This document shows positions 649 through 64,000 of a stretch of DNA of 64,000 nucleotides, piece after piece (the stretch's first letter is position 1; each line of letters begins with the position of its first letter). The stretch is from positions 288,480-352,479 of the forward strand of contig JAKLEP010000002.1 in assembly GCA_022703055.1 (NCBI GenBank), read 5' to 3'. The translations under genes and the position numbers were made by a program. The notes under the pieces are model-generated. The model was not told where the DNA came from. It saw nothing but the letters and a program-made list of their open reading frames with translations, and searched no databases. Source of the stretch: Candidatus Omnitrophota bacterium. GTDB taxonomy: Bacteria > Omnitrophota > Gorgyraeia > VGKH01.

Positions 649-1964
649 GCATGCAAGAAATCAGCTACTGGAATAGAGAAATTGAGACTATCTCAAGCGA
701 GGCTTTAAGAAAACTGCAACTTAAACGCCTCAAAGAAACAGTCAACACTGCCCTCAAGACACCTTTCTATAACGCCAGGTTAAAAAAGGCCGGAATCAAT
801 TCCGCTGATGATATAAAACGACTTGAGGATATCCATAAAATACCTTTCACCACTAAAGATGACTTGAGAGAGTGTTATCCAAACGGGCTTCTATCTGTAG
901 ATTTAAATGATGTTGTTAGGATCCATACCTCAAGCGGAACAACCGGAACGCCTACTGTTATCTACCATACCAAAGAAGACATTGATAACTGGACCGAACT
1001 GGTTGCGCGCTGTATTATTGCAACAGGATCAGGCAAAAGCGATGTTTTCCAAAACATGATGGGCTACGGAATGTTTACCGGCGGCCTAGGCCTTCATTAC
1101 GGCGCAGAGCGTGTCGGAATGACTGTTATTCCTATCGGCGGAGGAAATACCGTACGCCAGATTCAATTGATGAAAGACTTCAAGACTACAGTTTTGCATA
1201 TAACTCCCAGCTACCTCCTCCATATTCATTCCAAACTTGCCGAAGGCGAAATATCAGTCAAAGACCTCAGTTTAAAAAAGGCGTATTTAGGCGCAGAGCC
1301 TTATTCGGAAAATACCCGCAAGAAAGCTGAAGAACTTTTTAAGATAGACGCTTATAATTCTTACGGCCTAAGCGAAATGAACGGTCCGGGCGTAGCTTTT
1401 GAATGCATCCATAAATGCGGGATGCATGTCTGGGAAGATGCCTATATATTAGAAATCATTGACCCCAAAACAGCTGAGCCTCTTTCGGAAGAAAAAGAAG
1501 GCGAGATTGTCTTTACTACATTAATGCGAAAAGCCACTCCTCTATTGCGCTACCGTTCCCGAGATCTGGCTTTCATCTATAAAGGCGGATGCAAATGCAA
1601 AAGGACTCACCGCAGGATTTCAAGGATAACCGGTAGAACCGATGATATGCTGATTATAAACGGCGTCAATGTCTATCCTTCGCAAATTGAACAAGTGATT
1701 ATGCGCGTCCCAGAAGTAGGAACTAACTATCAAATTTACCTGGAAAAAGAAGGAACTTTGGACAAGCTCATTGTAAAGGTAGAAATCTATTCAAAATTGT
1801 TTACCGGAGAATTAAAAGAACTGGATGCTTTAAGGGAAAGAATTAAAGAGCAGCTACGCGCCTCTATCATAATTAATCCAGTAGTCGAATTGCATGAACC
1901 CGGAAGCTTACCGGTTTTTGAAGGCAAGGCAAAACGCGTGGTTGATACGCGTACAAAACTGTAG
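645..1964 (+). CDS. paaK: Phenylacetate-CoA ligase family protein
   Basis: 439 aa. Adenylate-forming motif HTSSGTTGTPT, YGLSEMNGPG, C-terminal GKAKRVVD. Size and motifs are typical of the PaaK family. Confidence 0.85.
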   Translation: MSMQEISYWNREIETISSEALRKLQLKRLKETVNTALKTPFYNARLKKAGINSADDIKRLEDIHKIPFTTKDDLRECYPNGLLSVDLNDVVRIHTSSGTTGTPTVIYHTKEDIDNWTELVARCIIATGSGKSDVFQNMMGYGMFTGGLGLHYGAERVGMTVIPIGGGNTVRQIQLMKDFKTTVLHITPSYLLHIHSKLAEGEISVKDLSLKKAYLGAEPYSENTRKKAEELFKIDAYNSYGLSEMNGPGVAFECIHKCGMHVWEDAYILEIIDPKTAEPLSEEKEGEIVFTTLMRKATPLLRYRSRDLAFIYKGGCKCKRTHRRISRITGRTDDMLIINGVNVYPSQIEQVIMRVPEVGTNYQIYLEKEGTLDKLIVKVEIYSKLFTGELKELDALRERIKEQLRASIIINPVVELHEPGSLPVFEGKAKRVVDTRTKL

Positions 1965-1980
1965 ACGAAAGGATAGTTTT

Positions 1981-2409
1981 ATGGCAAAACAACTGAATAT
2001 TTTCTTGGAAAACAAACCCGGAAGATTAAAAGCTGTCACAGAGCTCCTTTATCAAAATAAAATCAACATCCGCGCGCTGTCTTTGCAAGATAGACAAGAC
2101 TTTGGAGTATTAAAAATCGTTGTCGATAAGCCAGAAGAGGCGCATATAGCGCTTACTCAGAAAGGATTTGCCTGCGCCTTAAAAGACATCTTGGCAATTT
2201 TGATGGATGATAAACCCGGGGGATTACACAAGATTACCAGCTTATTCGTCGATAATAAAATTAATATTCAAGATGCCTATGCCTTCGTTATCGAATCAAA
2301 AAAACAGGCCGTCCTATGCGTGGAAGTAAAAGATCCTAAAGCTATCAAGGTCATCATCAAAAAAGAAGGCTATAAAATCTTGGAAGATGAACAACTCTAC
2401 GAACTCTAA
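1981..2409 (+). CDS. ACT domain-containing protein (paralog of 217-648)
   Basis: Start moved to ATG 1981 (MAKQLNIFLENKPGRL...); the ORF-track extension 1894-1980 overlaps the paaK 3' end. Shares LENxxGRL, INIRAL, VVDKPEEA and DDKPGGL blocks with the first ACT protein. Confidence 0.75.
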   Translation: MAKQLNIFLENKPGRLKAVTELLYQNKINIRALSLQDRQDFGVLKIVVDKPEEAHIALTQKGFACALKDILAILMDDKPGGLHKITSLFVDNKINIQDAYAFVIESKKQAVLCVEVKDPKAIKVIIKKEGYKILEDEQLYEL

Positions 2410-3197
2410 TGATTATTGATATCCATACCCATGCCTGGCCGGAAAAAGTATCTGGTAAAGCCCGGGAGAGCCTAGAATCTTCTTTCCGTGTCCGCCTCGT
2501 AGGAGATCCCACCTTAAAGATTCTGCTTAGTTTTATGGATAAAAACAGTATTGATATAAGCGCTGTCGCAGCTGTCGCCACTAAGCCCGACCAAGTCACT
2601 TCTATCAACGATTGGCTCTTTAGCATAAGAGGAAAACGAATAAGGGTTTTCTGTGCCATGCATCCTGATTTTCTATCCTGGGAGAAAGAACTAAAAAGAA
2701 TCAAAGAAAGCGGAGATGGCATTAAATTCCAGGGGGAATTTCAAGATTTCTACGTTGATGAAAACCGCATGTTCCCGTTATACGAAACTATCCAAAGACT
2801 GGAATTGCCGATTCTCTTCCACTGCGGCAAAGAGCTTTCCGGAACAATGCTTGTACGCTCCTCTCCTTCTCGGCTTGCTAAGATATTAAAAAACTTTCCT
2901 CATCTTAAGGTCATCGCCGGACATTTCGGCGGATTTGAACTCTGGGATGAAGTAAAAAAATACCTCCTGGGTAAAGATGTATACCTGGATACCTCATTCT
3001 TTTTCGACTACCTTCCCAAAAAAGAAGTACGCAGCCTTATTCTGGCTCATCGCCCTGACAGGCTACTTTTTGGCACAGACTTTCCTCTTATCGACCAGAA
3101 AAAAGATCTGGACTTCCTAAATTCATTAGACCTGCCCGAAGACTTAAGGCAACACATTCTCTACCTAAACGCTCAAAATCTACTCGGTATTAGTTAA
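2409..3197 (+). CDS. Amidohydrolase-2 / TIM-barrel metal-dependent hydrolase family protein
   Basis: 262 aa. N-terminal IIDIHTHAWP (HxH metal motif), later HCG and GHFGG, FGTDFP near the C-terminus. TAATG overlap with the upstream ACT gene. Confidence 0.7.
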   Translation: MIIDIHTHAWPEKVSGKARESLESSFRVRLVGDPTLKILLSFMDKNSIDISAVAAVATKPDQVTSINDWLFSIRGKRIRVFCAMHPDFLSWEKELKRIKESGDGIKFQGEFQDFYVDENRMFPLYETIQRLELPILFHCGKELSGTMLVRSSPSRLAKILKNFPHLKVIAGHFGGFELWDEVKKYLLGKDVYLDTSFFFDYLPKKEVRSLILAHRPDRLLFGTDFPLIDQKKDLDFLNSLDLPEDLRQHILYLNAQNLLGIS

Positions 3198-3200
3198 TTA

Positions 3201-3602
3201 TTAACTGCTGGCTGGCTCTAGAATTTGCCTGATCTCTTGGGGAATTATTCGCGGCTTAAAATCCTTATCGATACATGCCCAAATAGTCTTAGATACAATT
3301 ACAGTTTTATCGTTTAAAGTGATATTTTGAGAAAAATGGATTGAGGAATTGCCTAGTTTTTCCACTTGCGTCGCTAACTTAACAACATCTCCATAACGGG
3401 CTGGATATTTATAATCTACCTCGACATGCACAACGACAAAAAGGGTTCCCTTATTGAACCACTCCTGCAAGTCAATCCCATTGGCTGCGCAAAATTCAGT
3501 CCGCCCTTCCTCTAAGAATTTAAGGTAATTCGAATAATATACCACGCCACCGCAATCGGTGTCGTGATAATAAATCTTTTTCTGGATCATGCCTTCTTTC
3601 AT
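3201..3602 (-). CDS. Acyl-CoA thioesterase, YbgC/4HBT hotdog-fold family
   Basis: 133 aa. YYHDTDCGGVVYYSNYLKFLEEGRTEF is the classic YbgC/FadM N-terminal catalytic-Asp motif. Directly abuts the stop of the upstream GT2 gene. Confidence 0.8.
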   Translation of the reverse strand: MKEGMIQKKIYYHDTDCGGVVYYSNYLKFLEEGRTEFCAANGIDLQEWFNKGTLFVVVHVEVDYKYPARYGDVVKLATQVEKLGNSSIHFSQNITLNDKTVIVSKTIWACIDKDFKPRIIPQEIRQILEPASS

Positions 3603-5096
3603 TTAGCTTGAGTCTCTTTTCTTCTCGGTGTAAGTAAAGCCCATGTATTTACCCAATGCAAGCCTTGTCTGCGCATCCAGAGCAGGCGTTGAACCGATAA
3701 GAGGCATAACAATAGGAATAAACAGCCACTGAGTGACTAATTTTATCCAAGCCCTGAACTTCAACTCTTTTGGTTTAGGCGGCAATAGAGTAAAACTTAA
3801 TACCATCCATAATATAACTGTTATATTCGTTAGGCTAAACAACACTCCGGTTATCTTCGCCAGGTTATAACCAATCACCGCGCCTCGAAATGCATAGCTG
3901 TTGACAAGCATGGCGATAGGACTAATTACGGTTAAAATCATAGCATAAGTTGCCCAGCTGACATGGCTATCCAGTATCTGAAAAACTTTTCGGAATTTCT
4001 TATTAAACGGGATTAATGTATTATTTCTAAAATTCGCCATAACATACGGAAAAACTTCGATTCCCCATGCCCAGCGCCTCTTTTGTCTGTACTGCACGAC
4101 AAGAGTATGGAATAGGTTTCTTCCGTGCGCAACATCCATTGATACCGTTATATACATCGGAATTACCCTGTAGTCGGCATTATAATGAAGATAGGCCTTC
4201 CAAAAAATCAAGGAGTCATCAGAAACTTTATCCACCGGCCAATAATCCACATCGACTAATGTCTTAAAACTCATGCTGTGGCTGGAAAAAGTTACGAATT
4301 TCTCCAGACGTACGCCGTCGATAAGCTCAAAATAGGACGAACTTATCTCAACTACCCTGGCAAAAGACGGAGCATACCAGATATTATTATTATAAACCGG
4401 TATAGGCTGATAACTGCACTGTAGAGGTTTTTCTACAGTAAGAAAATGATAAAGAAGACAACCAAAATATTCTCTTTCTACGCACGTATCAGCGTCGAAA
4501 CAAGACACAATCACGTCTTCATACCTTATATTCTTATCATCAAGGATATTGACTAGTTTTTTTGCCGCCCAAGTGGCATTTGAACCTTTTGTCTTTGCCT
4601 CACCCGCTATTCCGTCGGGATGAAAGGTAGACAAAAATAGAAAGAAAGAATTCTTGTAGCGTAACTCCAGTTCCCTTGCTTTTTCTCTCGAATCCTTGAT
4701 TCTATCCTCAAAGGCCATAACTACAATAACCTTCTCTTTGGGATAATTAGCGTTATTTATTGCTTCCAATGAAGGGATAAGTATGTCCAATCCTTCTCTA
4801 TATACTGGGAATATTATTGCTTGGTAAATTTTCTTAATTTGGGGATTGGATAATCTTGCAGATAACGACAGCCAGTTCTTATTCTTTTCCTGATTTAAAC
4901 GATGGTGTGCCATGGTCAAAAGTGAGGTCAAATAACAAAGCCTGATTACCCAATATATATCGAAGATGATGATTATCAATGCGTAAGCCTTGGGCCTCAA
5001 GAAAGCGAAAGAAATAAAAATCAATAAAATCGACCAAGATATAAAGGCGGGTATAATTTCAAAAGCGCGCTTCTGAAGATCAAATACCTCTCTCAT
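3603..5096 (-). CDS. Membrane-embedded family-2 glycosyltransferase, probably processive (QxxRW type)
   Basis: 497 aa. N-terminal and C-terminal hydrophobic helices flank a GT2-like core with FDADT (DxD) and QKRRW (QxxRW) motifs. Start overlaps the stop of the PEGA gene (TAATG). Confidence 0.7.
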   Translation of the reverse strand: MREVFDLQKRAFEIIPAFISWSILLIFISFAFLRPKAYALIIIIFDIYWVIRLCYLTSLLTMAHHRLNQEKNKNWLSLSARLSNPQIKKIYQAIIFPVYREGLDILIPSLEAINNANYPKEKVIVVMAFEDRIKDSREKARELELRYKNSFFLFLSTFHPDGIAGEAKTKGSNATWAAKKLVNILDDKNIRYEDVIVSCFDADTCVEREYFGCLLYHFLTVEKPLQCSYQPIPVYNNNIWYAPSFARVVEISSSYFELIDGVRLEKFVTFSSHSMSFKTLVDVDYWPVDKVSDDSLIFWKAYLHYNADYRVIPMYITVSMDVAHGRNLFHTLVVQYRQKRRWAWGIEVFPYVMANFRNNTLIPFNKKFRKVFQILDSHVSWATYAMILTVISPIAMLVNSYAFRGAVIGYNLAKITGVLFSLTNITVILWMVLSFTLLPPKPKELKFRAWIKLVTQWLFIPIVMPLIGSTPALDAQTRLALGKYMGFTYTEKKRDSS

Positions 5097-6046
5097 TATT
5101 TAATATTTCCCTCTATGTCTTTAAAGAAAGTAAAGAGCGATTTCTTGCTAATGTCCAGACGATACAGGCCTTTATGAGACTTCCCGTCAGGACCGTCTTG
5201 GATATCGGTAAAATACAGGATATCATCATCAATATCGTAAAACGCCTTGGAACGCTTGTCATTTATATTCAAAAGAGTAACTATGTTATTCTTACCCTGG
5301 CTGATTAATTCATATATCTTTATATCCTTATCGGTCATAATTAAGACATGCTCGCTATCTGAATACCAAAATGCGTTTAGAATTTTACGCTCCGTATTGA
5401 TGGAAAAATTGATATCTTTGATTTGATTGCGTTCCGGTTTCTCACTAGGCACATACAAAACTTCCAGCCTATTTCCGAAATAATAGAATATCTTTTTCTT
5501 GTCCGGAGAAAGAGACAAGTCTTTAATATTCTCGGGAAGCTCAAGATTCCCAAAAAGTATGTTCAATTCTCTATCTTTAGGATTCAAGCTTGTTTTAGCA
5601 ATCGTGCTTTTATTGTCTGATATATAGTAGGCGTTGTCTTTATCGGCTGGAAATACATAAAAGTCATAAACATCAGAAATATTTATCTTTTCTAAATGCG
5701 GCTTAGTAGAAAAAAGGATGATATCCTGTAAGATGTTCGCTTTACCAGGCTCAACCAAAACTTCTTGGTACCAAGGATAATAACCTTCCAGCGCCAAAGA
5801 AAGCTTATATACTCCTGGTAATAATTCTTCGATTGCCGCGGGAGTTGTGTATTTAATCCTTCTTCCGTTTAAGTATACTTTGGCACCAACTGGTACGGAT
5901 TCCACATAGATTAAACCTGTCTTAATAATTCTTAATTTGCTTATATCTAATTTATATCCAAAAGAATAGAGTAATACCGAAGGTATCAATACAAAAAATA
6001 GGATTACGCTAATATAAAAAAGTATCGCCCTGACTTTTTGTACCAT
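5096..6046 (-). CDS. Membrane-anchored PEGA domain protein
   Basis: 316 aa. N-terminal TM helix (ILFYISVILFFVLIPSVLLY). PEGA-like segment VESVPVGAKVYLNGRRIKYTTPAAIEELLPGVYKLSLALEGYYPW. The C-terminal ~200 aa look beta-rich and repeat-like; family unknown. Confidence 0.6.
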   Translation of the reverse strand: MVQKVRAILFYISVILFFVLIPSVLLYSFGYKLDISKLRIIKTGLIYVESVPVGAKVYLNGRRIKYTTPAAIEELLPGVYKLSLALEGYYPWYQEVLVEPGKANILQDIILFSTKPHLEKINISDVYDFYVFPADKDNAYYISDNKSTIAKTSLNPKDRELNILFGNLELPENIKDLSLSPDKKKIFYYFGNRLEVLYVPSEKPERNQIKDINFSINTERKILNAFWYSDSEHVLIMTDKDIKIYELISQGKNNIVTLLNINDKRSKAFYDIDDDILYFTDIQDGPDGKSHKGLYRLDISKKSLFTFFKDIEGNIK

Positions 6047-6077
6047 TATTAACTGCCTTTCTCCTATTTAAATAAAT

Positions 6078-6443
<366 letters not shown>

Positions 6444-6469
6444 AAATTATCCAATGAACAGAGTATCTT

Positions 6470-6922
6470 TTAACGGCGCCGACGCAATTCCCGCTTCATT
6501 TCTAAATCTAATTCGCGTTCTTTGATCGCCGCCCGTTTATCATAAAGCTTTTTGCCTTTTACCAATCCTAATTCAACTTTGACAAAACCCTTCTTGAAAT
6601 AAAACTTAAGTGGGACTAACGTCAGCCCACGCTGACTCACCCTACTTAAAATACGCCTAATCTCGCTTTTATGTAAAAGCAGCCGGCGCACCCTTTTAGG
6701 ATCTACATTAAAATAACTTCCTTTTTCGTAAGGAGTAATATGGGTGTTGTATAACAACACCTCTTCTTCTTCAATACGGGCAAAACTATCCTTTAAATTT
6801 GCGTTACCTTCCCGTATAGACTTAACCTCAGAGCCTTTCAGTTCTATACCGCATTCAAAAGACTCCAAGATGCTAAAATCGCGGAAAGCCGAGCTATTCT
6901 TGGCGATAACGTTATCTTTCAT
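6470..6922 (-). CDS. smpB: SsrA-binding protein SmpB
   Basis: 150 aa. ...NKKAxxDF-like N-terminus, GIELKGSEVKSIREG, LLLHKSEI, basic C-terminal tail. Adjacent to tmRNA. Confidence 0.9.
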   Translation of the reverse strand: MKDNVIAKNSSAFRDFSILESFECGIELKGSEVKSIREGNANLKDSFARIEEEEVLLYNTHITPYEKGSYFNVDPKRVRRLLLHKSEIRRILSRVSQRGLTLVPLKFYFKKGFVKVELGLVKGKKLYDKRAAIKERELDLEMKRELRRRR

Positions 6923-52505: not shown

Positions 52506-52928
52506 CTATAATTCTGAATCACCAAAGCTCTTATAATCTGAGCCGGTAGTTTGTTTGTTCGCTGCTTCCTTTTCGTACGCCTCTAAAACCTTCTTCTGCA
52601 GATATTCCCTGAAAGATTGGGTTATAGGATGGGCGATATCCCTATGTTCTGTTTCGGCAGAGGGCGTTTCTCCAATTGGTCTTACTGGTGCAGATACGGC
52701 GCTGCCACACTGATTGCAGAATTTGCTGCGATATTCATTACGGAATCCACACTTCGGACATGGATGCTTTAACTTTCTTGAAGGCATAGCGATGAACAAA
52801 CCTGTGGAGCCCTGGATTACCTTGACGTTTCTGACGACGAATGCGTTATCAAAAGTAACAGTTGCGTAAGCCCTCAATTTTTTGTCGATTGAATCCCTAA
52901 GGAAGATTCTGACTTCAGTAATCTCCAT
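52506..52928 (-). CDS. spoVG: SpoVG family protein with internal zinc-ribbon insertion and extended C-terminus
   Basis: Start moved to ATG 52928 (MEITEVRIFL..., the canonical SpoVG start, GGAGG RBS upstream). GLFIAMPSRK and RDIAHPI flank an inserted CPKCG...FCNQCG segment. Confidence 0.8.
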   Translation of the reverse strand: MEITEVRIFLRDSIDKKLRAYATVTFDNAFVVRNVKVIQGSTGLFIAMPSRKLKHPCPKCGFRNEYRSKFCNQCGSAVSAPVRPIGETPSAETEHRDIAHPITQSFREYLQKKVLEAYEKEAANKQTTGSDYKSFGDSEL

Positions 52929-52944
52929 AAAAGTTGCCTCCTTT

Positions 52945-53796
52945 TTAGTGAGTTCGAACCACAAAGACCTGCAAGTCTTGCGACTTTATACTCCTGGCTG
53001 TCTTCTCTGCCTCCTTTCTTGACTTAAGTATACCAAATATAGCCGGACCGCTGCCGGAAAGACAAAAAACCCCCACGCCCAGCTCTTGCAATTTCTTTTT
53101 GATATAAAGCAACTTAGGCAATTTCCTGAAAGCAGAAGCTTCCAGGTCGTTTGCTATATAATCCTTAAGCCTAGAAAGGTCGAAATTATTCAAAGCGCGA
53201 ACTAACATATTAACATTATCTTCATTTTTTGTCAATCTTAAATTTAGGCTGGAATATATCTCTTTTGTGCTCAATTTGTTATGAGGAACTACTAAAATAT
53301 GCCAAAGAACTCTCGAAATTGGCAGGTTTTTTATCTTATCCCCTCTGCCCGTACCTATCGCAAAACTGCTTTCTGAGACAAAAAACGGCACATCGCTGCC
53401 TATTTTTGCGGCATAAGACTTAAGTTTTACCCTGCTCAACCTCAGTTTCCAGAACTTATTAAGCCCCAAAAGCACACTGGCGGCGTTGCTTGAGCCACCG
53501 CCTAAACCAGCAGCAACCGGGATCCGCTTTTTCAGGCTTATATCTAAACCTGAGCTCTTGTTCTTGAAATCTTTCCTAAGCAAGTCAGCGGCCTTATACA
53601 TAAGGTTTGCGCTATCCGTCGGTACCTCAGGATGATTACAAAGAATCCTAACTCTGCTATCTTTTCTTTTTTTTAAAAGAACTTCATCGAATAGGCCAAT
53701 GCGCTCAAAGAGTGTTTTTATCTGGTGGTAGCCGTCTTTTCTTTTCTTTAAGACTTTTAAATAAAGATTGATTTTAGCCGGAGATTTTAATCTCAT
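52945..53796 (-). CDS. ispE: 4-diphosphocytidyl-2-C-methyl-D-erythritol kinase
   Basis: 283 aa. PAKINLYLKV start, GHMP-kinase loop IPVAAGLGGGSSNAA. Confidence 0.9.
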   Translation of the reverse strand: MRLKSPAKINLYLKVLKKRKDGYHQIKTLFERIGLFDEVLLKKRKDSRVRILCNHPEVPTDSANLMYKAADLLRKDFKNKSSGLDISLKKRIPVAAGLGGGSSNAASVLLGLNKFWKLRLSRVKLKSYAAKIGSDVPFFVSESSFAIGTGRGDKIKNLPISRVLWHILVVPHNKLSTKEIYSSLNLRLTKNEDNVNMLVRALNNFDLSRLKDYIANDLEASAFRKLPKLLYIKKKLQELGVGVFCLSGSGPAIFGILKSRKEAEKTARSIKSQDLQVFVVRTH

Positions 53797-55596: not shown

Positions 55597-56571
55597 CTAC
55601 CTTTCTATTTTTTCTAACTTTGCTTTAACCGAAGGCTCATTTTTTAACTCTAAGGATCTCTGCCATTGCGCTTTGGCTCTTCCAGCGTCTCCTATTTTCA
55701 GATAAACATCTCCAAGATGGTCGTATATTACTGGGTCTTCCAAGAGCTTTACCGCTTTTTCCAACTCTGTCAACGCCTCTTTGGTTTTTCCTTGCTTGAA
55801 ATATGCCCAGCCGAGGCTATCAATGTATGCTCCGTTTTCCGGATCGATCTCCAAGGCTTTCTTTATCAAGGCTATAGCCTGATTTAAATCATACCCCTGC
55901 TCGACGTAAATATAGCCTAGCGAATTAAGGCTATTACCGTGTTTAGGGTCGAGTTCTAAAGCCTTTTTAAAAGTCTCAATAGCCTCTTTATGCTGTTTAT
56001 TTTCTTCGTAGGTAGAACCTAAGAAGAATAAGGCTTCGACATCTTTAGGGTCGAGCTTTAATATTGCCTGGAATTGTTTTAGTGCTTGATCAAATTTCTC
56101 TTGCTGAAAATATAACTGACCCAAATATTGTCTAACCTGTATGTTTTCAGGATCGCGCTCGGAAACCTTCCTTAAAACTAACTCATACTCCTGGATAGCT
56201 TCGTCGGATTTTCTTTCCGTCGTATAAAGCAGTGCGAGAAGAAAATGGCCTTCTAGGTTATCAGGGTTTAATTGTGTGGCGAGTTTAAATTCCTCGATTG
56301 CTTCCGGGATTTTATTAAGTTTGGTGTAGGCGGTTCCGATCCTTAAATGGATTTCGGAATTATCCGACTCAAGCTTTGCGGCTTTTAAATATTCCTTAAG
56401 AGCCTCTTCGGTCTGGCCTTCAAAATCCAAAACCAAGCCCATCATATAATGAGAATAGACCACCGAGGCTTTTTTGGCATCTTGAGCGCCTAAAACTTGC
56501 CGAGAGAAATTAATCCCACAGAAAACAACAGCAAAAATAAGAAAAAACCACCACGTTGCTAAGCGTTTCAA
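55597..56571 (-). CDS. Secreted/membrane-anchored tetratricopeptide repeat protein
   Basis: 324 aa. Hydrophobic N-terminus, then about 8 TPR units (repeated A..Y.kAl.ldP patterns). Confidence 0.75.
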   Translation of the reverse strand: MKRLATWWFFLIFAVVFCGINFSRQVLGAQDAKKASVVYSHYMMGLVLDFEGQTEEALKEYLKAAKLESDNSEIHLRIGTAYTKLNKIPEAIEEFKLATQLNPDNLEGHFLLALLYTTERKSDEAIQEYELVLRKVSERDPENIQVRQYLGQLYFQQEKFDQALKQFQAILKLDPKDVEALFFLGSTYEENKQHKEAIETFKKALELDPKHGNSLNSLGYIYVEQGYDLNQAIALIKKALEIDPENGAYIDSLGWAYFKQGKTKEALTELEKAVKLLEDPVIYDHLGDVYLKIGDAGRAKAQWQRSLELKNEPSVKAKLEKIER

Positions 56572-57615: not shown

Positions 57616-58647
57616 TTAATTAAATGTTTCTAAGGCCAACCCAACGGCCACAGCAAGGCTAATAGATACGCTCTTAAGCCTTTCCTGGGAAACATTGCGG
57701 TCAAGCGCAAGATTCTTAATCACATCCAATGTATGGACTTCCCTGCCGAGGTTATCGCTTAAGAATGAAACCAATTTCTTAAGATTGGCGGTGCCACCAC
57801 TTAGATAAACTTCGTCAACGGCCATGCCAAATTCGCTTTCATAATAATCAAATGAAAGATATATTTCATTAAGCAGATTTCCCAAAATAGGCTCGATGGA
57901 TTTAAAAATCTCATCTTCTCTTTCGCTGGGATCCTGCTTCAGCTTTTCCGCTTCCATATCCGGGATATCAAGCTTCTCTTTTATTAGATGGGTAATATTT
58001 TCTCCGCCTAGCTGGATGTCTCTCATAAAATATGAGAAATTATCCCTGACGATATTGATATTGGTTATTTTAGTCCCCAGATTTAAAAGGCCTGCAGTAG
58101 TGTCTTTTTTCTCGGGGTAATTTAGCCCGAAAACATTTTTCAAGATCAACGAATCGATGGTTACAACCTGAGGGTCAAGCCCGGCATCCTCTATAATCTT
58201 TACCCGTTCCTCAATCACTTTCTTTTTGGTGGCTACAAGAAGTATCTGCATATTCTTTTTACTGGCATCTTCCCTCAAGACCTGATAATCGCTAGCTACC
58301 TCTTCCTTGCCAAAAGGAATGTATCTTTCAATTTCAAAATTCATCGCCCTATTTAATTCTTCCCGGCTCATGAAGGGGAGCAATAGGTACCTGATAATGG
58401 TGCCCTGAGAAAAAACCGAAGCATTTACTTTTTTAGTGGAAATTCTTGCTTCTTCACATGCTTTTTTTATCGCGTCGGTAAAATCTTTGGGTTGATTGCC
58501 GTTAACCGCGCTAAGCCCCAACCCCTTAAAGGTATAAACGTCTTTATCCTTTTTTATCTCCACGACTTTGACGGAATGGCTTCCAATATCCAAACCGACA
58601 GATATCTCTGGCTTAGAAAATGTTTTCTCTAAATATTTTTGGAACAT
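57616..58647 (-). CDS. pilM: Type IV pilus assembly ATPase-fold protein PilM
   Basis: 343 aa. Actin-like fold: VGLDIGSHSVKVVEI, ERYIPF, GGENIT, YLSGGTANLKKL. Confidence 0.8.
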   Translation of the reverse strand: MFQKYLEKTFSKPEISVGLDIGSHSVKVVEIKKDKDVYTFKGLGLSAVNGNQPKDFTDAIKKACEEARISTKKVNASVFSQGTIIRYLLLPFMSREELNRAMNFEIERYIPFGKEEVASDYQVLREDASKKNMQILLVATKKKVIEERVKIIEDAGLDPQVVTIDSLILKNVFGLNYPEKKDTTAGLLNLGTKITNINIVRDNFSYFMRDIQLGGENITHLIKEKLDIPDMEAEKLKQDPSEREDEIFKSIEPILGNLLNEIYLSFDYYESEFGMAVDEVYLSGGTANLKKLVSFLSDNLGREVHTLDVIKNLALDRNVSQERLKSVSISLAVAVGLALETFN

Positions 58648-58648
58648 A

Positions 58649-60172
58649 TTATTTTAGATTTAAATATGTAAAATAGTGGCTTTTAGACTTGGCACTATTA
58701 CCTAAATATTCGTAGATTTTAGACAAATTAAAATGAGCCTGTTTATCATTAGGATCTATTTTTAAGACTTGCTCGAATTCTTCTACCGCTTTCTGGTATT
58801 CTTCCATTTTTGTATAGATACAGCCTAAATTATAATATAAATTTTTATTCTGCGGATTAAGCTTTATGGCTTCTTCATACTTTTTTATCGCTGCTTGGTT
58901 ATCGCCCTTGGAAGCATATTCAAATGCCAGAGTTTCTATCTTAGTGACTTCTTCCATGCCCGGCTTATAAACAGCCGTAGGCTGTTTAGGCTGCAACTGC
59001 AGCATTGACTCTAGGATAGTCTTCTCGCGATTCAAGCTTGCCAATTGTTCATTTGAATTACTAATCAAATTGTTAAGACTGGCTATATCGCTTTTTTGGG
59101 AAGTGTTTTCCTGTTGTAATTTAGCGATCTGGTCATTTAGCTGCATTACTATCGCTTGCAACTGGTCTGGGCTTTGCGACAGATTCGATTTTTCTTCTTC
59201 GCTTTTCTTTAAAGCGTTATTGAGTTCATCATTGCTCGACTGCAAGCTAAGAAGTTTAGACTCTAATTCATAGATCCTTTTGTCTTTATCATCGTTTTCT
59301 GCGACGGAAACAACCTTCTGGCCAGCTGAATCAAGCTGGGACTGAAGGCTATCGCTCTGCGCGATGACCCTTTTTAACTCTTTTTCCAAATCAGCTATCT
59401 GAGATTGATTATCCTTTATCGTCGTATTTAAATCGGAAATCTTCTGGTTTAAATCAAAATTCTCTTTTTCTGAATCCTGGAGCAGCTTTTCGGTCTTTTT
59501 TAATTTTGAAAGTTCTTGCGCCGGAGTCTTGGGGGCAGCTTCCTTTTTCTGCTTTAATTCCTTTATGTTTGCCTCTAAAGCATCTATCTTGTTTTTCAGA
59601 TTTGAATTTTCTTTCGCTAAAGAATCTTTGCCCTGCGAAACATTATCCCCCTGTTTCTGCAGAGATTTATAATTAGATTGCAAATCCGTGAGTTCTTTTT
59701 GCGTTTTCTTGATAGTATCTTCTAAGCTGGTAATTTTATTTTGAAGCTGGCTGTTTTCGCGAGCTAAGCTGTCATTTTTTGCGGAAAGGCTCTGTAATTC
59801 GGATTTTGAAGAGCCCGTCTTAGACTGCACTTCCGACAACTGCGACTTAAGTTCTGTAATACGATTCTCTAACTCCTCCGACTTCTGCAGTACGTCTTGT
59901 TTCTCTTGGTCTGTCTGCTTAAGCAAATTCTCAACCTGAGTCACTTGTGTCTTTAAACTTTCTGCATTAAGACGGTATTCTTCTTTTTCTTTAATAATTT
60001 TCTGAATCTTGGCTCTTAAATCGCTAATCCCCTGTTGCCACATCTGGTCCATATCCATGGCTTGAGGCTGCTGCAACTGCATCGCAGAATCAATATCTTG
60101 AGCGTAAATATAGTTCGAGACAACAAAAGAAAAACAAATAATTATCGCTAGAATGATTCTGCTTTTGGTCAT
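58649..60172 (-). CDS. Secreted long coiled-coil protein with C-terminal TPR domain
   Basis: 507 aa. Signal peptide (IILAIIICFSFVVSNYIYA/QD). About 380 aa of Q/E/K/S/L-rich heptad-like sequence with internal repeats (DSLARENSQLQNKITSLEDTI / DSLAKENSNLKNKIDALEANI). About 3 TPR units at the C-terminus. Confidence 0.6.
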   Translation of the reverse strand: MTKSRIILAIIICFSFVVSNYIYAQDIDSAMQLQQPQAMDMDQMWQQGISDLRAKIQKIIKEKEEYRLNAESLKTQVTQVENLLKQTDQEKQDVLQKSEELENRITELKSQLSEVQSKTGSSKSELQSLSAKNDSLARENSQLQNKITSLEDTIKKTQKELTDLQSNYKSLQKQGDNVSQGKDSLAKENSNLKNKIDALEANIKELKQKKEAAPKTPAQELSKLKKTEKLLQDSEKENFDLNQKISDLNTTIKDNQSQIADLEKELKRVIAQSDSLQSQLDSAGQKVVSVAENDDKDKRIYELESKLLSLQSSNDELNNALKKSEEEKSNLSQSPDQLQAIVMQLNDQIAKLQQENTSQKSDIASLNNLISNSNEQLASLNREKTILESMLQLQPKQPTAVYKPGMEEVTKIETLAFEYASKGDNQAAIKKYEEAIKLNPQNKNLYYNLGCIYTKMEEYQKAVEEFEQVLKIDPNDKQAHFNLSKIYEYLGNSAKSKSHYFTYLNLK

Positions 60173-60187
60173 ATTAAAAATTCCTCC

Positions 60188-61600
60188 TTATTCCGGCGGT
60201 CTGAGGGAAAACGGCTCTTTTACTTCTCCCTCTACCGTCAAGACATCCTCTAATTCTCTCTTTTCCGAGAATTCTTCAAACCTTTCTTTCTCTTTTTTGC
60301 TGAACCTTGGCTGCGTTACTATTGTAGGAGTTACAAAAATTAACAAATCAACATTAGTGACTACCTTAACTGTCCTTCTAAAAGCCGCGCCTATAAACGG
60401 TAAATCTCCCAAAATAGGAACTTTGTCTATCGTCGTGGAATCTGTTTTCCGGCGTAGTCCTCCGATAACTATCGTCTGCTTATCTTTCACCATCAAATTA
60501 GTTTCGGCATTACGGGAATCTATTATAGGCTGGTTGTCACTAGTAGTACCACTTTGAAAACTCTGCTCTACCTTTATATTCATAGAAATATAGTTATCTT
60601 TTGTGGTAATGTGCGGTGTAACAAAAAGCTCAATACCTGCTTCTTTAAACTGCGTAGAAGAATAGCTACCCTGCTCTGTTTGCTGAACTGAAGTATAAGG
60701 AATCTGTTCGGTCAATTTTATCGTGGCGGTAAGATTATCTAGGGTCATGACGCGTGGATTGGCCAAAATATTAACTTTTTTATTCTCTTTCCATAACTCT
60801 ATAAGTGAAGCAAGATCTAAGGTCTCAAACAAAGTTTTATTAAAAACTATGGAGCCTGCGACATCAGCGGTGAGCCTGGTAAGCGATAAATCCTGCCCAA
60901 AAGACGCCTCTGTTTCAACAGTCGCCGGTTTCCCCACCAATTCCACGCCTGCTTTGTACTGATCGCCTAAAGTAACATCAACCATCAAAGCCTCGATCAT
61001 CACCTGAGGAGTACGTAAGTCTAAATCTTGAGCAACCTGTTTTATCAATTTAACCTTATCCGGAGTATCCGTAACTATAAGGGCATTAGTTCTAGGACTT
61101 ACTTGTATCTTGCCCCTGACGCTAAGCATGCTATCGAGCGAGTTCTTTATCTCACCCACGCTTGCGAAATCTAATGTGATTATTTCTGTTACCAAGGGGA
61201 TTTTTTCCTCTTCATTTTTTAATTGTTCCAAAGTCATAATCCTTATAAGATTCTCTTCTTTTTTATAGGTAAGATTATAGTTTTTCAATATGACATCGAG
61301 CGCCTTTTCCCAAGTCGTATCTTTTAACTGTATAGTAACAGTGGCTGCTACGTCCTGGCCAAGAATTATATTTACTCCGCTTTTTTGGGATAAAACCCTT
61401 ATAACATCTTTTATGTCGGTATTCTCAAAATCTAAATTAATTAGCTCCTCTGCGGCAGGCACGGCAGCAGACGTCTCAATGATACCTCCTTGCGCCGGCT
61501 GCTCTTTCTCTTGCGATTCCAAATTAGTCAGCGGCGAGGAGAACAAAAAACCGAAAATAATAAGAAAAAATAAAAGAATTCTTATTCTGTTCCCTTTCAC
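60188..61600 (-). CDS. pilQ: Secretin (PilQ/GspD family), short form
   Basis: 470 aa. Signal peptide, N0/STN-like module (INLDFENTDIKDVIRVLSQKSGVNII), N1 domain, secretin core (ILANPRVMTLDN...VPILGDLPFIGAAFR). No AMIN-like repeats seen. Confidence 0.85.
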   Translation of the reverse strand: MKGNRIRILLFFLIIFGFLFSSPLTNLESQEKEQPAQGGIIETSAAVPAAEELINLDFENTDIKDVIRVLSQKSGVNIILGQDVAATVTIQLKDTTWEKALDVILKNYNLTYKKEENLIRIMTLEQLKNEEEKIPLVTEIITLDFASVGEIKNSLDSMLSVRGKIQVSPRTNALIVTDTPDKVKLIKQVAQDLDLRTPQVMIEALMVDVTLGDQYKAGVELVGKPATVETEASFGQDLSLTRLTADVAGSIVFNKTLFETLDLASLIELWKENKKVNILANPRVMTLDNLTATIKLTEQIPYTSVQQTEQGSYSSTQFKEAGIELFVTPHITTKDNYISMNIKVEQSFQSGTTSDNQPIIDSRNAETNLMVKDKQTIVIGGLRRKTDSTTIDKVPILGDLPFIGAAFRRTVKVVTNVDLLIFVTPTIVTQPRFSKKEKERFEEFSEKRELEDVLTVEGEVKEPFSLRPPE

Positions 61601-62031
61601 TCTTTCTCCTTTTTTCTTAATTTAATTTCAAATTCTCTATCGTTATAATTCAAAATGACACTATCTGGATTTATTTTCTGTACAATAACAGTCTTCGCAA
61701 AACCCGCGTCCTCGACAATAAGCTGAGAACCTTCCGACAAAACCTTTCCATTTATTACCGCAATAGGATTCTTTGCGTCCCACAAGATTCCTTTTAAGAC
61801 AATCTTGGCAGCGATCTCTTCCGCCGGGACAAACAAGTTCTGCCCGCTACGAATATTACCCTGGTTATCAACGAGGGGCACAAAAGGATCCCTGCGCACC
61901 TCTTTGGCAAAAGATAAACTTATATACACAATCAAGGCTGATAAAAAGATAACTAAGTATAACGCTCTAAATGAGTTATCAGCTTTTAAGCTCAATATTC
62001 CTTTATTCTTTAGCCCCAAGTATTTTAGCAT
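61597..62031 (-). CDS. PilP-like pilus assembly protein
   Basis: 144 aa. One TM helix, RDPFVP motif, C-terminal small beta domain (LKGILWDAKNPIAVINGKVLSEG). 4-nt overlap with pilQ. Confidence 0.6.
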   Translation of the reverse strand: MLKYLGLKNKGILSLKADNSFRALYLVIFLSALIVYISLSFAKEVRRDPFVPLVDNQGNIRSGQNLFVPAEEIAAKIVLKGILWDAKNPIAVINGKVLSEGSQLIVEDAGFAKTVIVQKINPDSVILNYNDREFEIKLRKKEKE

Positions 62032-62057
62032 AACTTGTATTAAATTTGTAAAATATT

Positions 62058-62636
62058 TTATTCCTTCAAAGCTGAAAAAGTGCTTATGGTCACCTCTACA
62101 TCATGACCCCACATATCCTGTGGGTTGCCTCTGATTTTTAAATCGCTTATTTTCATAAGCCGTTTGGAGCTCTCAATTTTCTTAACAAAACCTATAAGTT
62201 CATTAAATCCGCATTTTAGCCTTACGGTTATGGGCAATTCCAGATACACCTGTTTTTGGTCTGGCTGTTCATATTTCTTTGTATTTTTTGGCTCTATCGA
62301 GACAAACTGTATTTTTGATTCTTGGGTAATATCCTTCAGTGTATCAATCAACAAGCTCGCCTCTATTTGTTCGGGCAGCTTCTCTTCTAACTGGGCTATT
62401 TCTTTTTCAAGGCTTACAATGTTATTATTCAATGTATTTATATCCTGCGCAGCCCGCTCCGCCTGAAAAAACAACTGTTTCTTATTTGTTACTTTGGAAG
62501 ACAAATTCTGCATTTTTTTATTCTGAGGCAGAAATATGAAATACAAAAATAAAATTATCAGTACAATAGCGATTATAAAAGGTAAATAAGGTTTAATTTT
62601 TTCTTTATCAATACTGCCTGCTAAATTTTTTGCCAT
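62058..62636 (-). CDS. pilO: Type IV pilus assembly protein PilO
   Basis: 192 aa. N-terminal TM, coiled coil, ferredoxin-like C-domain (YLELPITVRLKCGFNELIGFVKKIE). Confidence 0.7.
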   Translation of the reverse strand: MAKNLAGSIDKEKIKPYLPFIIAIVLIILFLYFIFLPQNKKMQNLSSKVTNKKQLFFQAERAAQDINTLNNNIVSLEKEIAQLEEKLPEQIEASLLIDTLKDITQESKIQFVSIEPKNTKKYEQPDQKQVYLELPITVRLKCGFNELIGFVKKIESSKRLMKISDLKIRGNPQDMWGHDVEVTISTFSALKE

Positions 62637-62656
62637 AATTAACCGCCATCATTCTT

Positions 62657-63301
62657 CTATTCAAACACGCAATAGAATTCAAAATTCATTATATCCCTGC
62701 TTGCTACGACGCCTTTAGTCAAAGAATTAAGCTTTATTTCCTTGAAACCCCTAGAAAAAACTTCGTCTTTAGCCAGCCTATCTCTAAAAGCACCCACCAA
62801 CTCCACTGCTTCCTGGATTATCTGGGCGACTGCCCGTCCCTTTATAGAAATTACAGATTTTTCTTCCATAGACTTATTGCCTTCTATGTCTGCTATATTG
62901 ACCCTTTTTTCAAAAGATAAATCTGTCAGCCAAACACCCTCGGGAATTAATTCGGCAATTCTGTCCAGTTTCTCCGACCAAAGCATTTTTTTCTGAGTAA
63001 ACTCGCCTAAGAAAGCAAGCCTCTTTAGAAGTTTGTCACGCTGCTCATTGAGCTTGATCAATTTTTGGGGCTCAACTGTAAAAGTTGCCTCTTTCTGTTC
63101 CAAGGTCTTCAATTCTTTGGTATATTTGCTTATTTTTGTACCCATAATGACCCAAATTGAAATCATCAAAACTATGATTACCCCTATAACAACGTAAGAT
63201 AAAGTTAGAGGGTTTTCTTTTTTTATAGAAGAAACGACCTCTACTTTAGGTTTTTTAGCTTTTTTGCCAAAGCTAGGAGATAAAAGATTTATCTGTGGCA
63301 T
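62657..63301 (-). CDS. pilN: Type IV pilus assembly protein PilN
   Basis: 214 aa. N-terminal PQINLLSP (PilM-binding INLLP motif), single TM, coiled coil, C-terminal alpha/beta domain (GVWLTDL). Confidence 0.7.
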   Translation of the reverse strand: MPQINLLSPSFGKKAKKPKVEVVSSIKKENPLTLSYVVIGVIIVLMISIWVIMGTKISKYTKELKTLEQKEATFTVEPQKLIKLNEQRDKLLKRLAFLGEFTQKKMLWSEKLDRIAELIPEGVWLTDLSFEKRVNIADIEGNKSMEEKSVISIKGRAVAQIIQEAVELVGAFRDRLAKDEVFSRGFKEIKLNSLTKGVVASRDIMNFEFYCVFE

Positions 63302-63380
63302 CCATACCTCTTTTTCCAGTCCCTAAATTAAACTCTAACTTTATATTGTACTACAAAAAAAGTAAATAAATAAAAATATT

Positions 63381-63920
63381 TTATCTTTTTACAAAAGCTG
63401 ATATAAGTTCGCAGGGAGAATCAAGCTCCCCTGAGTGCCCTCCCACGTCTTCACCGGAAGACAATGCTCCATCTAAATTCCTGTCTTCTCCGATAATATT
63501 GCCAAGCCGCTGCCTCCAGCATACTATGACGCGCGCTTCCTTGATCCAACCCGTAGGTATTGAACCGGCGGCCTTGTCTGTTATATAGATGGTACAAGAA
63601 CCGTTGAAGCCGTTATAATTATGTGAAATGTTATCATTATTAAAAGAAACTATTCTTCTTGTCCCGCTTGGCACGGAACTGCAGCCGGTGGTATAAGCCA
63701 AGTTTAGACACATGCTCTGCCCCAAATTATCAAACTCTATATTCCTGAGATTATACAGTTCCTCCATTTTTTCACGGGCGATGTTCATACCAATGGTCAA
63801 ATTCCTATCGAATTCATTAAGATTCAAAGAACTGATGTAGCTAATTAACAAACCTACCAATGCGAATCCAACTATAGCCACCACAACCATTAATTCTAGC
63901 ATCGTTAAGCCCTTATTCAT
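63381..63920 (-). CDS. Prepilin-type N-terminal cleavage/methylation domain protein (pilin/pseudopilin)
   Basis: 179 aa. MNKG/LTMLELMVVVAIVGFALVGLL class III signal with Glu at +5. Cys-rich globular domain. EF-hand-like loop DRNLDGALSSGE. Confidence 0.8.
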   Translation of the reverse strand: MNKGLTMLELMVVVAIVGFALVGLLISYISSLNLNEFDRNLTIGMNIAREKMEELYNLRNIEFDNLGQSMCLNLAYTTGCSSVPSGTRRIVSFNNDNISHNYNGFNGSCTIYITDKAAGSIPTGWIKEARVIVCWRQRLGNIIGEDRNLDGALSSGEDVGGHSGELDSPCELISAFVKR

Positions 63921-63923
63921 TAC

Positions 63924-64000
63924 TTACCTCCCGATTAACTGAGTTATCTTCAAGATGGGCAAAAATAATGATATGACTATGCCTCCGACTATAACGCCCA
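63924..64000 (-). CDS. pilC: Type II secretion system F / PilC family platform protein, C-terminal fragment
   Basis: Minus-strand frame open to the window edge. The tail ...GVIVGGIVISLFLPILKITQLIGR* matches the conserved GspF/PilC C-terminal TM end (..lyLPIf.m...i). TAA at 63926-63924. Confidence 0.5.
   Translation of the reverse strand, partial: GVIVGGIVISLFLPILKITQLIGR

Follow-up and report, generated by a model that had tools for sequence, protein, structure and literature searches.

The 64,000-nucleotide window analysed here (contig JAKLEP010000002.1, from a Candidatus Omnitrophota bacterium) ends in an operon for a type IV pilus-like machine (positions 57616-64000), whose open reading frames (ORFs) all lie on the minus strand, at the coordinates proposed in an earlier, sequence-only reading of this DNA. 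In the direction of transcription, they encode the end of the platform protein PilC, a pilin-like protein, PilN, PilO, a PilP-like protein, the secretin PilQ, a secreted protein with a coiled coil and tetratricopeptide repeats (TPRs), called X hereafter, and PilM (Table 1). Every gene call of the sequence-only reading holds, as judged from the ORFs and from hidden Markov model (HMM) scores, and the non-canonical order with pilM last can be read directly as N-O-P-Q-X-M, in departure from the canonical pilM-N-O-P-Q. From pilC to hisG, in transcription order, the genes are separated by 3, 79, 20, 26, -4, 15, 1 and 26 nt; the coordinates confirm the spacing described before, i.e., a largest gap of 79 nt (63302-63380), an overlap of 4 nt between pilP and pilQ and a single nucleotide between X and pilM. 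No terminator-like site was found on the coding strand between the operon genes, which makes their co-transcription plausible; a scan of the locus for promoters and terminators was uninformative, with counts no higher than in shuffled sequence. As also noted earlier, only one pilin-like gene is present in the window, and positions 1-57000 contain no further pilus gene, only housekeeping genes.

Table 1. Genes and protein features of the pilus-like operon, with window positions and supporting evidence (a slash marks the predicted signal cleavage site).
Feature	Position	Strand	Evidence or remark
pilC, 3′ end (platform protein, clipped by window edge)	63924-64000	-	translation ends ...LPILKITQLIGR, then stop
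pilin-like gene, 179 aa	63381-63920	-	N_methyl 21.3 bits (cutoff 21.2); TIGR02532 21.4; leader MNKG/LTMLE
pilN, 214 aa	62657-63301	-	N-terminus MPQINLLSP (63275-63298), one transmembrane helix after it; Pfam PilN 22.7 (cutoff 22.8)
pilO, 192 aa	62058-62636	-	PF04350 60.9 bits (cutoff 22)
pilP-like gene, 144 aa	61597-62031	-	family profile matches GspC HR domain and PilP
pilQ secretin, 470 aa	60188-61600	-	Secretin 160.3 bits
PilQ charged C-terminal tail	60191-60307	-	translation; FSLRPP motif at 60194-60211
X, 507 aa	58649-60172	-	signal peptide, coiled coil, three TPRs
X signal peptide (residues 1-24)	60101-60172	-	ends ...NYIYA/QD, no lipobox
X coiled coil (residues ~41-392)	58997-60052	-	coiled-coil family matches; AlphaFold2 helices
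X 3-TPR domain (residues 406-505)	58658-58957	-	TPR families 50-65 bits; AlphaFold2 pLDDT >90
pilM, 343 aa, last gene of the module	57616-58647	-	PF11104 193.6 bits (cutoff 27); TIGR01175 188.6 (cutoff 133)
hisG, 291 aa	56714-57589		neighbour, outside the module

None of the refuting results named in the sequence-only reading was obtained. The terminal gene, for which a better fit to FtsA/MreB-like proteins than to PilM had been named beforehand as one such result, encodes PilM: against the 193.6 bits of PF11104 stand 37.7 and 39.6 bits with the FtsA models PF14450 and TIGR01174. PilO passes its model clearly. PilN falls 0.1 bit short of the Pfam cutoff, and a profile built from 36 proteins of the family, with that of the window as the first, retrieves Myxococcus xanthus PilN (3jc8, chain 3jc8_Na; E=6e-9) and Thermus PilN (4bhq; E=0.003). 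The INLL motif of PilN is known from Thermus and Pseudomonas to bind PilM. Here it lies in the cytoplasmic N-terminus of PilN and is kept in the orthologs; the PilN proteins of this type of module start with MPQINLLS(P), whereas canonical PilN proteins, those of the same genomes included, start with MIEINLLPxxLR. Judging from these N-termini, the PilM-binding motif is retained with a clade-specific flavour, and we infer that two PilM/PilN pairs in one cell could be orthogonal. The PilP-like protein combines an N-terminal hydrophobic anchor with a C-terminal HR-type domain; in PilP, this beta-domain contacts the N0 domain of the secretin. As a single sequence, it gives weak T2SSB and GspC matches and passes no curated model; a family profile of 34 orthologs matches the GspC HR domain (3oss_C, E=4.2e-5) and M. 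xanthus PilP (3jc8_Pa, E=1.7e-3). It has no lipobox, as its N-terminus (...ALYLVIFLSALIVYISLSFAKE) is devoid of Cys and resembles a signal anchor as in GspC.

PilQ consists of a signal peptide, an N0/STN domain (40.8 bits), a single N1/Secretin_N domain (52.5 bits) and the Secretin domain, and scores 270.2 with the curated model TIGR02515 (cutoff 284.35). AMIN domains are typical of many PilQ proteins of type IVa pili (T4aP). The description of this secretin as short and devoid of them is correct, since no match to the AMIN family was found at E<=0.1. The charged C-terminal tail that had been pointed out is likewise confirmed by translation: it reads RFSKKEKERF...EPFSLRPPE, a charged linker followed by a motif, with …GEVKEPFSLRPPE as the last 15 residues, and is probably disordered. 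In X, AlphaFold2 (AF2) predicts long helices at residues 41-209, 218-283, 293-330 and 335-392; the predicted TM-score of 0.27 permits no call between a hairpin and a rod. The search for tandem repeats in the 57-64 kb region gave nothing relevant, and X of the window is not made of exact DNA repeats.

The pilin-like protein carries a class III signal, four conserved Cys residues and an acidic GEDxNLxG loop, and its AF2 model (mean predicted local distance difference test, pLDDT, of 86.6) shows an N-terminal helix of 61 residues and five strands. Among paralogs, it comes closest to the first minor pilin of a canonical pilus cluster found at locus L050, in a relative that is 91% identical (30% identity, E=9e-19), and no similarity was detected to the GFTLxE major pilins of the same cluster. 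By sequence, the pilin of the module is therefore closest to a minor pilin, not to a major pilin. Among the major pilin genes of L050 are two others that may serve in pilin modification: one (1483-3402) encodes a membrane protein of the sulfatase family, similar in architecture to EptA/PptA, and the other (4689-6662) a polytopic membrane protein whose C-terminus bears TPRs.

Identical copies of the pilin sequence are present on 11 public contigs, and anaerobic-digester samples (JGI 3300010429 and 3300009838) contain the contig. The longest of the 11 (JGI Ga0116241_10000127, 223 kb, locus L001) reaches upstream of the window. It shows, in order, a GGDEF/GAF protein that also has a HAMP domain, a MshEN protein of 153 aa, two tandem PilB-like ATPases (PilB1 with 574 and PilB2 with 570 aa), a large protein (1377 aa), another MshEN protein of 153 aa and the complete PilC (404 aa). 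The full order is mshEN-pilB1-pilB2-GGDEF/AAA/HEAT-mshEN-pilC-pilin-pilN-pilO-pilP-pilQ-X-pilM, of which the window holds the distal half. In view of these upstream genes, the machine cannot be called minimal, as it had been from the window; the ATPases expected there are represented by the two PilB-like proteins, and no PilT was seen within the visible 10 kb upstream. PilC matches T2SSF and scores about 415 bits with PilC models and 404.6 with GspF (cutoff 424). PilB1 and PilB2 reach 658.3 and 642.4 bits with the PilB equivalog TIGR02538 (cutoff 675.65) and 590 and 608 with the GspE model (cutoff 630.25). The 1377-aa protein (within 1-9997 of L001) is composed of an N-terminal GGDEF domain (151.9 bits) with an intact RxxD I-site (RGGD), an AAA_16 domain and HEAT repeats. 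The model NF053729 for the cyclic di-GMP (c-di-GMP)-binding motif (cutoff 38) is passed by the first and second MshEN proteins (60.1 and 64.7) and by PilB1 (49.3), with PilB2 under the cutoff at 35.0; this curated HMM was used because a strict MshEN regular expression gave no match, solely because the first Arg is replaced.

Judged by its composition, this machine is T4aP-like: PilM and PilN are separate proteins, and the best scores are those of T4aP PilB, PilM and PilQ. It shares with the PilMNOPQ systems of M. xanthus, Pseudomonas aeruginosa and Thermus thermophilus the five components, the separate PilM and PilN, the INLL motif, an HR-type PilP, and PilB-type ATPases and PilC in the operon. 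Unlike these canonical systems, it has pilM as the last gene with a TPR/coiled-coil gene between pilQ and pilM, a secretin without AMIN domains and with a C-terminal tail motif, a PilP without lipobox, two tandem PilB paralogs, no adjacent PilT and one pilin-like gene resembling a minor pilin. Two other types of pilus were considered and rejected. An MSHA-type system, raised by the ATPases with MshEN domains and by a mshN-like TPR gene after the secretin, is not supported by the MshL model TIGR02519 (104.2 vs 250.2), and PF05157 is found on most PilB proteins. For a system of the Akkermansia Amuc_1098-1102 type, the models of Amuc_1101 (141.6 vs 650) and Amuc_1098 (71 vs 750) remain far below their cutoffs.

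The sequence-only reading had called the machine T4P/T2SS-like. As a rival to a surface pilus, it could resemble a type II secretion system (T2SS), in which a short pseudopilus would push proteins through the secretin, with X possibly even being a substrate or a surface fibre. We regard this explanation as unlikely. The module does resemble GspC-D-L-M in having a protein with an HR domain, another similar to GspM/PilO, a secretin that is short and lacks AMIN domains, and a C-terminal secretin extension that would recruit a partner; the family of its pilin is publicly annotated as 'type II secretion system protein / PulG', PilO matches GspM at 35 bits, the PilP profile favours GspC (4e-5) over PilP (1.7e-3) and the GspE and GspF scores lie just below their cutoffs. 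The single, minor-pilin-like pilin gene, the lack of PilT in the visible 10 kb upstream, and the highly variable length and repeat-built nature of X, as in surface fibres, could be read in the same way. However, both GspL, a fusion of PilM and PilN, and the GspG-K set of pseudopilins typical of T2SS are absent here, PilQ scores 220.7 with GspD (cutoff 351), all curated T2SS models remain below their cutoffs and T2SS pilotins are small lipoproteins, not TPR proteins. Moreover, the best scores belong to the T4aP models, the module forms a single cluster in relatives with pilins of both kinds (major and minor) and with a canonical pilMNOPQ set, and a conserved TPR domain co-occurring with a periplasmic secretin tail suits a structural partner better than a substrate.

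We compared 79 genome loci around relatives of PilM, annotated with the proteins of the window. The order ...PilC-pilin-N-O-P-Q-X-M is present in 10 species-level loci, with PilM proteins that are 47-92% identical, and about 60 other loci (from Omnitrophota, Planctomycetota and Nitrospirota) display the canonical order M-N-O-P-Q, so that the arrangement of the window is not the common one. In a neighbour-joining tree of 97 PilM proteins, every PilM encoded after the secretin falls into one clade, and the canonical PilM proteins of the same genomes branch elsewhere. The named PilM homologs are nearly all from Candidatus Omnitrophota, as are the genome records fetched, and the named members of the secretin subfamily to which this PilQ belongs are Omnitrophota; some automated records labelled 'Planctomycetia' carry the same cluster. 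A wider sample was obtained by searching 1.84 billion representative proteins with PilQ of the window and by scanning metagenome contigs with the resulting PilQ alignment. In this sample, pilM lies at most 3.3 kb downstream of the secretin at 21 of the 23 loci of the subfamily, vs only one of 90 loci with other secretins; the exceptions in the subfamily are L091, in which no pilM follows the TPR gene, and L101, in which a 568-aa PilM fusion takes the first position. Together with the single PilM clade, these numbers make the pilM-last permutation a fixed trait of an Omnitrophota secretin subfamily, of which it is the normal layout, and not the singular rearrangement that the window had suggested.

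In seven of the 10 species-level loci (L007, L008, L013, L015, L018, L019 and L020), a canonical cluster lies directly downstream of the terminal pilM. It encodes major and minor pilins, a PilX_N/DUF4900 protein and pilM-N-O-P-Q, with one PilB1/PilB2/PilC set visible. In the 91%-identical relative, the canonical cluster is located on another contig (L050) and no motor gene is present within 7-10 kb. At L057 (3739-8867, at a contig end), the order is PilC, TPR protein, PilM, N, O, P, Q and PilM; of the two PilM proteins, the first falls into a canonical clade and the second into that of the pilM-last modules, and this locus may correspond to an evolutionary intermediate. As the sequence-only reading supposed, the arrangement seems to be new, inasmuch as no description of the N-O-P-Q-X-M order came up in the searchable literature: on this subject, all that Seymour et al. 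(2023) report is the common occurrence of T4aP genes in Omnitrophota, and Denise et al. discuss T4aP as scattered operons. The module is thus a conserved, apparently undescribed arrangement made of known parts.

The C-terminal motif of PilQ and the gene that follows pilQ are closely associated. All 10 PilQ proteins followed by X end with [FYI]x[LI]RPP after a charged linker, vs none of 62 other PilQ proteins, and the closest representative secretins have related C-terminal motifs (e.g., ...PFSLRGPK, ...PFPLRAP or ...LLPLKxPNE). Four of these that were looked up are followed immediately, often with overlapping codons, by the gene of a secreted TPR protein (126-274 aa); the short partners of L091, L092 and L094 go with LLPLKxPNE tails, in L092 and L094 the TPR gene is followed by pilM, and the 129-aa protein of L091 aligns with residues 407-501 of X (E=2e-11). 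Among 136 complete secretins with enough downstream sequence, scored for a motif [LI][RK]xP and for a TPR gene immediately downstream, 21 have both and 113 have neither. A motif without TPR gene was found once (L113) and corresponds to a chance IKIP match in a tail bearing a fused TPR-like element; a TPR gene without motif was also found once (L156) and encodes a lipoprotein-type TPR protein after a distant secretin. In the members of the family lacking the motif (L009, L057, L100, L104, L107, L110 and L113), pilM directly follows pilQ. Four secretins (L107:2391-4067, L113:5932-7569, L010:12671-14305 and L021:8218-9825) carry a fused C-terminal TPR-like helix pair (…A..F..IL.LDP…A..YL…), in place of both the tail motif and a separate TPR gene. 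In another subfamily, Omnitrophota secretins of canonical order (L081-L086, L062, L065 and L053) end with …G[YF][LMIF]xx[RK] after a low-complexity linker, and linear motifs at the C-terminus may be a general feature of Omnitrophota secretins.

These comparisons change the picture of X. Its orthologs share a signal peptide of the signal peptidase I (SPase I) type without consistent lipobox, a W..L..L segment, a LNREKxxLESLL helix and three TPRs; their coiled coil is variable (total lengths of 455-705 aa), with internal repeats in L013. Over all loci, the TPR partner measures between 126 and 1035 aa, and the longest forms, L108:7262-10369 (1035 aa) and L013:7874-9991 (705 aa), contain tandem coiled-coil repeats. 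Judging from alignment and gene position, X is a version, expanded by a coiled coil, of the small secreted 3-TPR protein regularly encoded after these secretins: its proposed status of an additional secreted component stands, and it can be described as an accessory protein tied to the secretin, but it is not an oddity wedged into the operon. A whole-database search with X returned mostly generic TPR proteins and only two full-length relatives (P0121 and P0173), and its distribution was established instead through the secretin and synteny.

The order of these genes could have been shuffled neutrally, with X being a generic TPR protein without specific role. TPR proteins are indeed abundant in these genomes, a second secreted one being encoded in the window at 55597-56571; the TPR domain of X best matches consensus designs and its database relatives are mostly generic. 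Yet the TPR gene remains the immediate downstream neighbour of the secretin gene, in many cases with an overlap of the stop codon, across PilQ proteins that are only 36-47% identical to that of the window, its presence tracks the tail motif almost perfectly, and the order is fixed in a monophyletic PilM clade. We thus consider this explanation very improbable and already disfavoured. The TPR protein at 55597-56571 (minus strand, 324 aa, at least six TPRs), located one gene downstream of hisG, scores 107 bits with the PilW model (cutoff 154) and 95 with Tgl (cutoff 225), and its gene is also found after hisG in the 91%-identical relative (L012); its product is a generic TPR protein that might also serve the secretin.

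The association between a secretin tail and a TPR protein has an experimental precedent in Tad systems: there, the TPR pilotin TadD binds in its groove the final 4-5 residues of the secretin RcpA, and assembly of the secretin requires these residues (PMC10499894). The co-occurrence of motif and TPR gene and this precedent lead us to propose that the TPR domain of X captures the tail of PilQ. In both cases, a TPR protein is paired with a secretin whose C-terminal residues are the ligand, which is proven for Tad and proposed here. They differ in that TadD is a lipoprotein with a PilF-like fold, whereas the signal peptides of X and its short relatives are ordinary, and these proteins have no more than three TPRs and, in this lineage, a long coiled coil; furthermore, the Tad secretin is RcpA, whereas the present one is PilQ-like. 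X also recalls PilF of P. aeruginosa, PilW of Neisseria and Tgl of M. xanthus, which are TPR proteins tied to T4aP secretins. These are lipoproteins without coiled coil, unlike X, which has a coiled coil and no lipobox and remains below the cutoffs of the TPR-pilotin models (TIGR02521, 53.4 vs 154; Tgl NF033762, 18.2 vs 225). Use of a C-terminal secretin peptide is not known for PilF or Tgl. When the profile of the TPR domain of X was compared with the PDB, the best matches were designed consensus TPRs and OGT, with no specific link to PilF, PilW or TadD. A FimV-like polar organiser was ruled out, X being secreted and having neither LysM nor an internal transmembrane helix.

X might also be, instead of a secretin chaperone, a cytoskeleton-like periplasmic scaffold or an inner membrane tether with an uncleaved signal anchor, which would set the position or spacing of secretins or connect this module with the second, canonical PilMNOPQ set on a shared PilB/PilC motor. 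Its coiled coil is long, variable (from 0 to about 900 residues) and built of tandem repeats, and the conserved N-terminal W..L..L motif is far from the TPR domain. In L007, L008, L018 and L020, a single PilB1-PilB2-PilC set precedes both N-O-P-Q-X-M and the canonical M-N-O-P-Q, and in the 91%-identical relative, motor genes are absent for 7-10 kb around the canonical locus. The short partners of 126-131 aa argue against such a role, because they keep the position and the association with the motif without any coiled coil, and the core function should therefore reside in the TPR domain; in addition, the signal peptides look like ordinary SPase I substrates. This hypothesis appears to us rather improbable, somewhat more so than the T2SS-like machine.

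The locus is probably a conserved Omnitrophota operon for a T4aP-like, envelope-spanning machine, with a putative pairing of the PilQ tail with a TPR partner and putative control by c-di-GMP. In such a machine, PilQ would form the outer membrane channel, which PilP, PilN and PilO would link to the inner membrane, cytoplasmic PilM would clamp the N-terminal INLL motif of PilN, and PilC and the PilB-like ATPases would drive fibre assembly. The terminal position of pilM would be a fixed, lineage-specific permutation of gene order that leaves the mechanism unchanged. The TPR groove would capture the tail motif of PilQ, so helping, stabilising or positioning the secretin; the partner would have gained its coiled coil of about 350 residues in this lineage, and this may be a scaffold or a spacer. 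Finally, c-di-GMP would probably switch assembly, by way of the MshEN domains and of the GGDEF protein that the operon encodes.

Several observations weigh against this interpretation. Several of the curated T4aP models are narrowly missed (PilQ, 270 vs 284; PilB, 658 and 642 vs 676), and the sole pilin-like gene resembles a minor pilin. The GGDEF motif of the 1377-aa protein reads AGDEF, and its cyclase activity is therefore uncertain. The TPR domain of X is near-consensus, with no specific affinity for PilF, PilW or Tgl, and no lipobox is present, so that X is not a classical pilotin. As straight rods, the longest coiled coils (about 900 residues in L108) would not fit into the width of a periplasm. 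Lastly, the p value of the association between motif and TPR gene (Fisher test, 2e-22) overstates the independence of the loci, which are phylogenetically related.

The c-di-GMP-related part of the operon recalls the MshE and PilB ATPases controlled by this messenger (PMC5013675), as the ATPases here have N-terminal MshEN domains too, that of PilB1 passing the model for the binding motif; unlike those systems, the present operon adds two stand-alone MshEN proteins and the 1377-aa GGDEF(AGDEF)-AAA_16-HEAT protein. A gene for a PilZ-domain protein, located directly after the terminal pilM in L094 (4204-4539), was counted in support of c-di-GMP control. These parts make the operon a compact candidate system in which pilus assembly would be controlled locally by a second messenger. 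A bolder and quite tentative extension, which we think unlikely, is that X and its relatives form a new class of non-lipoprotein secretin partners, with three TPRs on the C-terminal motif of PilQ and, in some Omnitrophota, a repeat-built coiled coil of up to about 900 residues as periplasmic scaffold, ruler or exported fibre, and that one PilB1/PilB2/PilC motor under local c-di-GMP control perhaps serves two PilMNOPQ conduits, the pilM-last module and a canonical one.

Dependence or predation on other cells is assumed for the ultra-small, uncultivated bacteria of the Omnitrophota, and T4aP rank among the best-conserved of their candidate machines for host contact (PMC10066038). In a large subfamily of secretin modules of this phylum, the layout is distinct and fixed, pilM being the last gene, and annotation rules that expect the pilMNOPQ order, or pilM first, may mis-score such systems. 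The gene order as such is a curiosity; the putative pairing of tail and TPR domain and the c-di-GMP parts of the operon offer the more useful leads. If the proposed pairing is true, a C-terminal motif and a secreted TPR partner replace here the AMIN domains and the lipoprotein pilotin. This is a concrete, testable pair of peptide and domain, and it would extend the RcpA-TadD principle from Tad to a PilQ-type secretin.

A few other features were observed at these loci and in the rest of the window. Directly before pilN, L009 (6737-6928) and L091 (6235-6441) carry a small gene of the MerR/HTH_17 type (63-68 aa) with a conserved YTTKDVLKK sequence. Over the window (1-64000), all 2-kb bins from the second on have a negative GC skew (cumulative value of -4.36). 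Beyond the first 15 kb or so, to which the few plus-strand ORFs are confined, all long ORFs of the window are encoded on the minus strand; ORF orientation and GC skew fit a single long, co-oriented gene array on the leading strand. At 52506-52964 (minus strand), the SpoVG domain of a SpoVG homolog (100.5 bits) is interrupted midway by a double zinc-ribbon (CPKC…CNQC).

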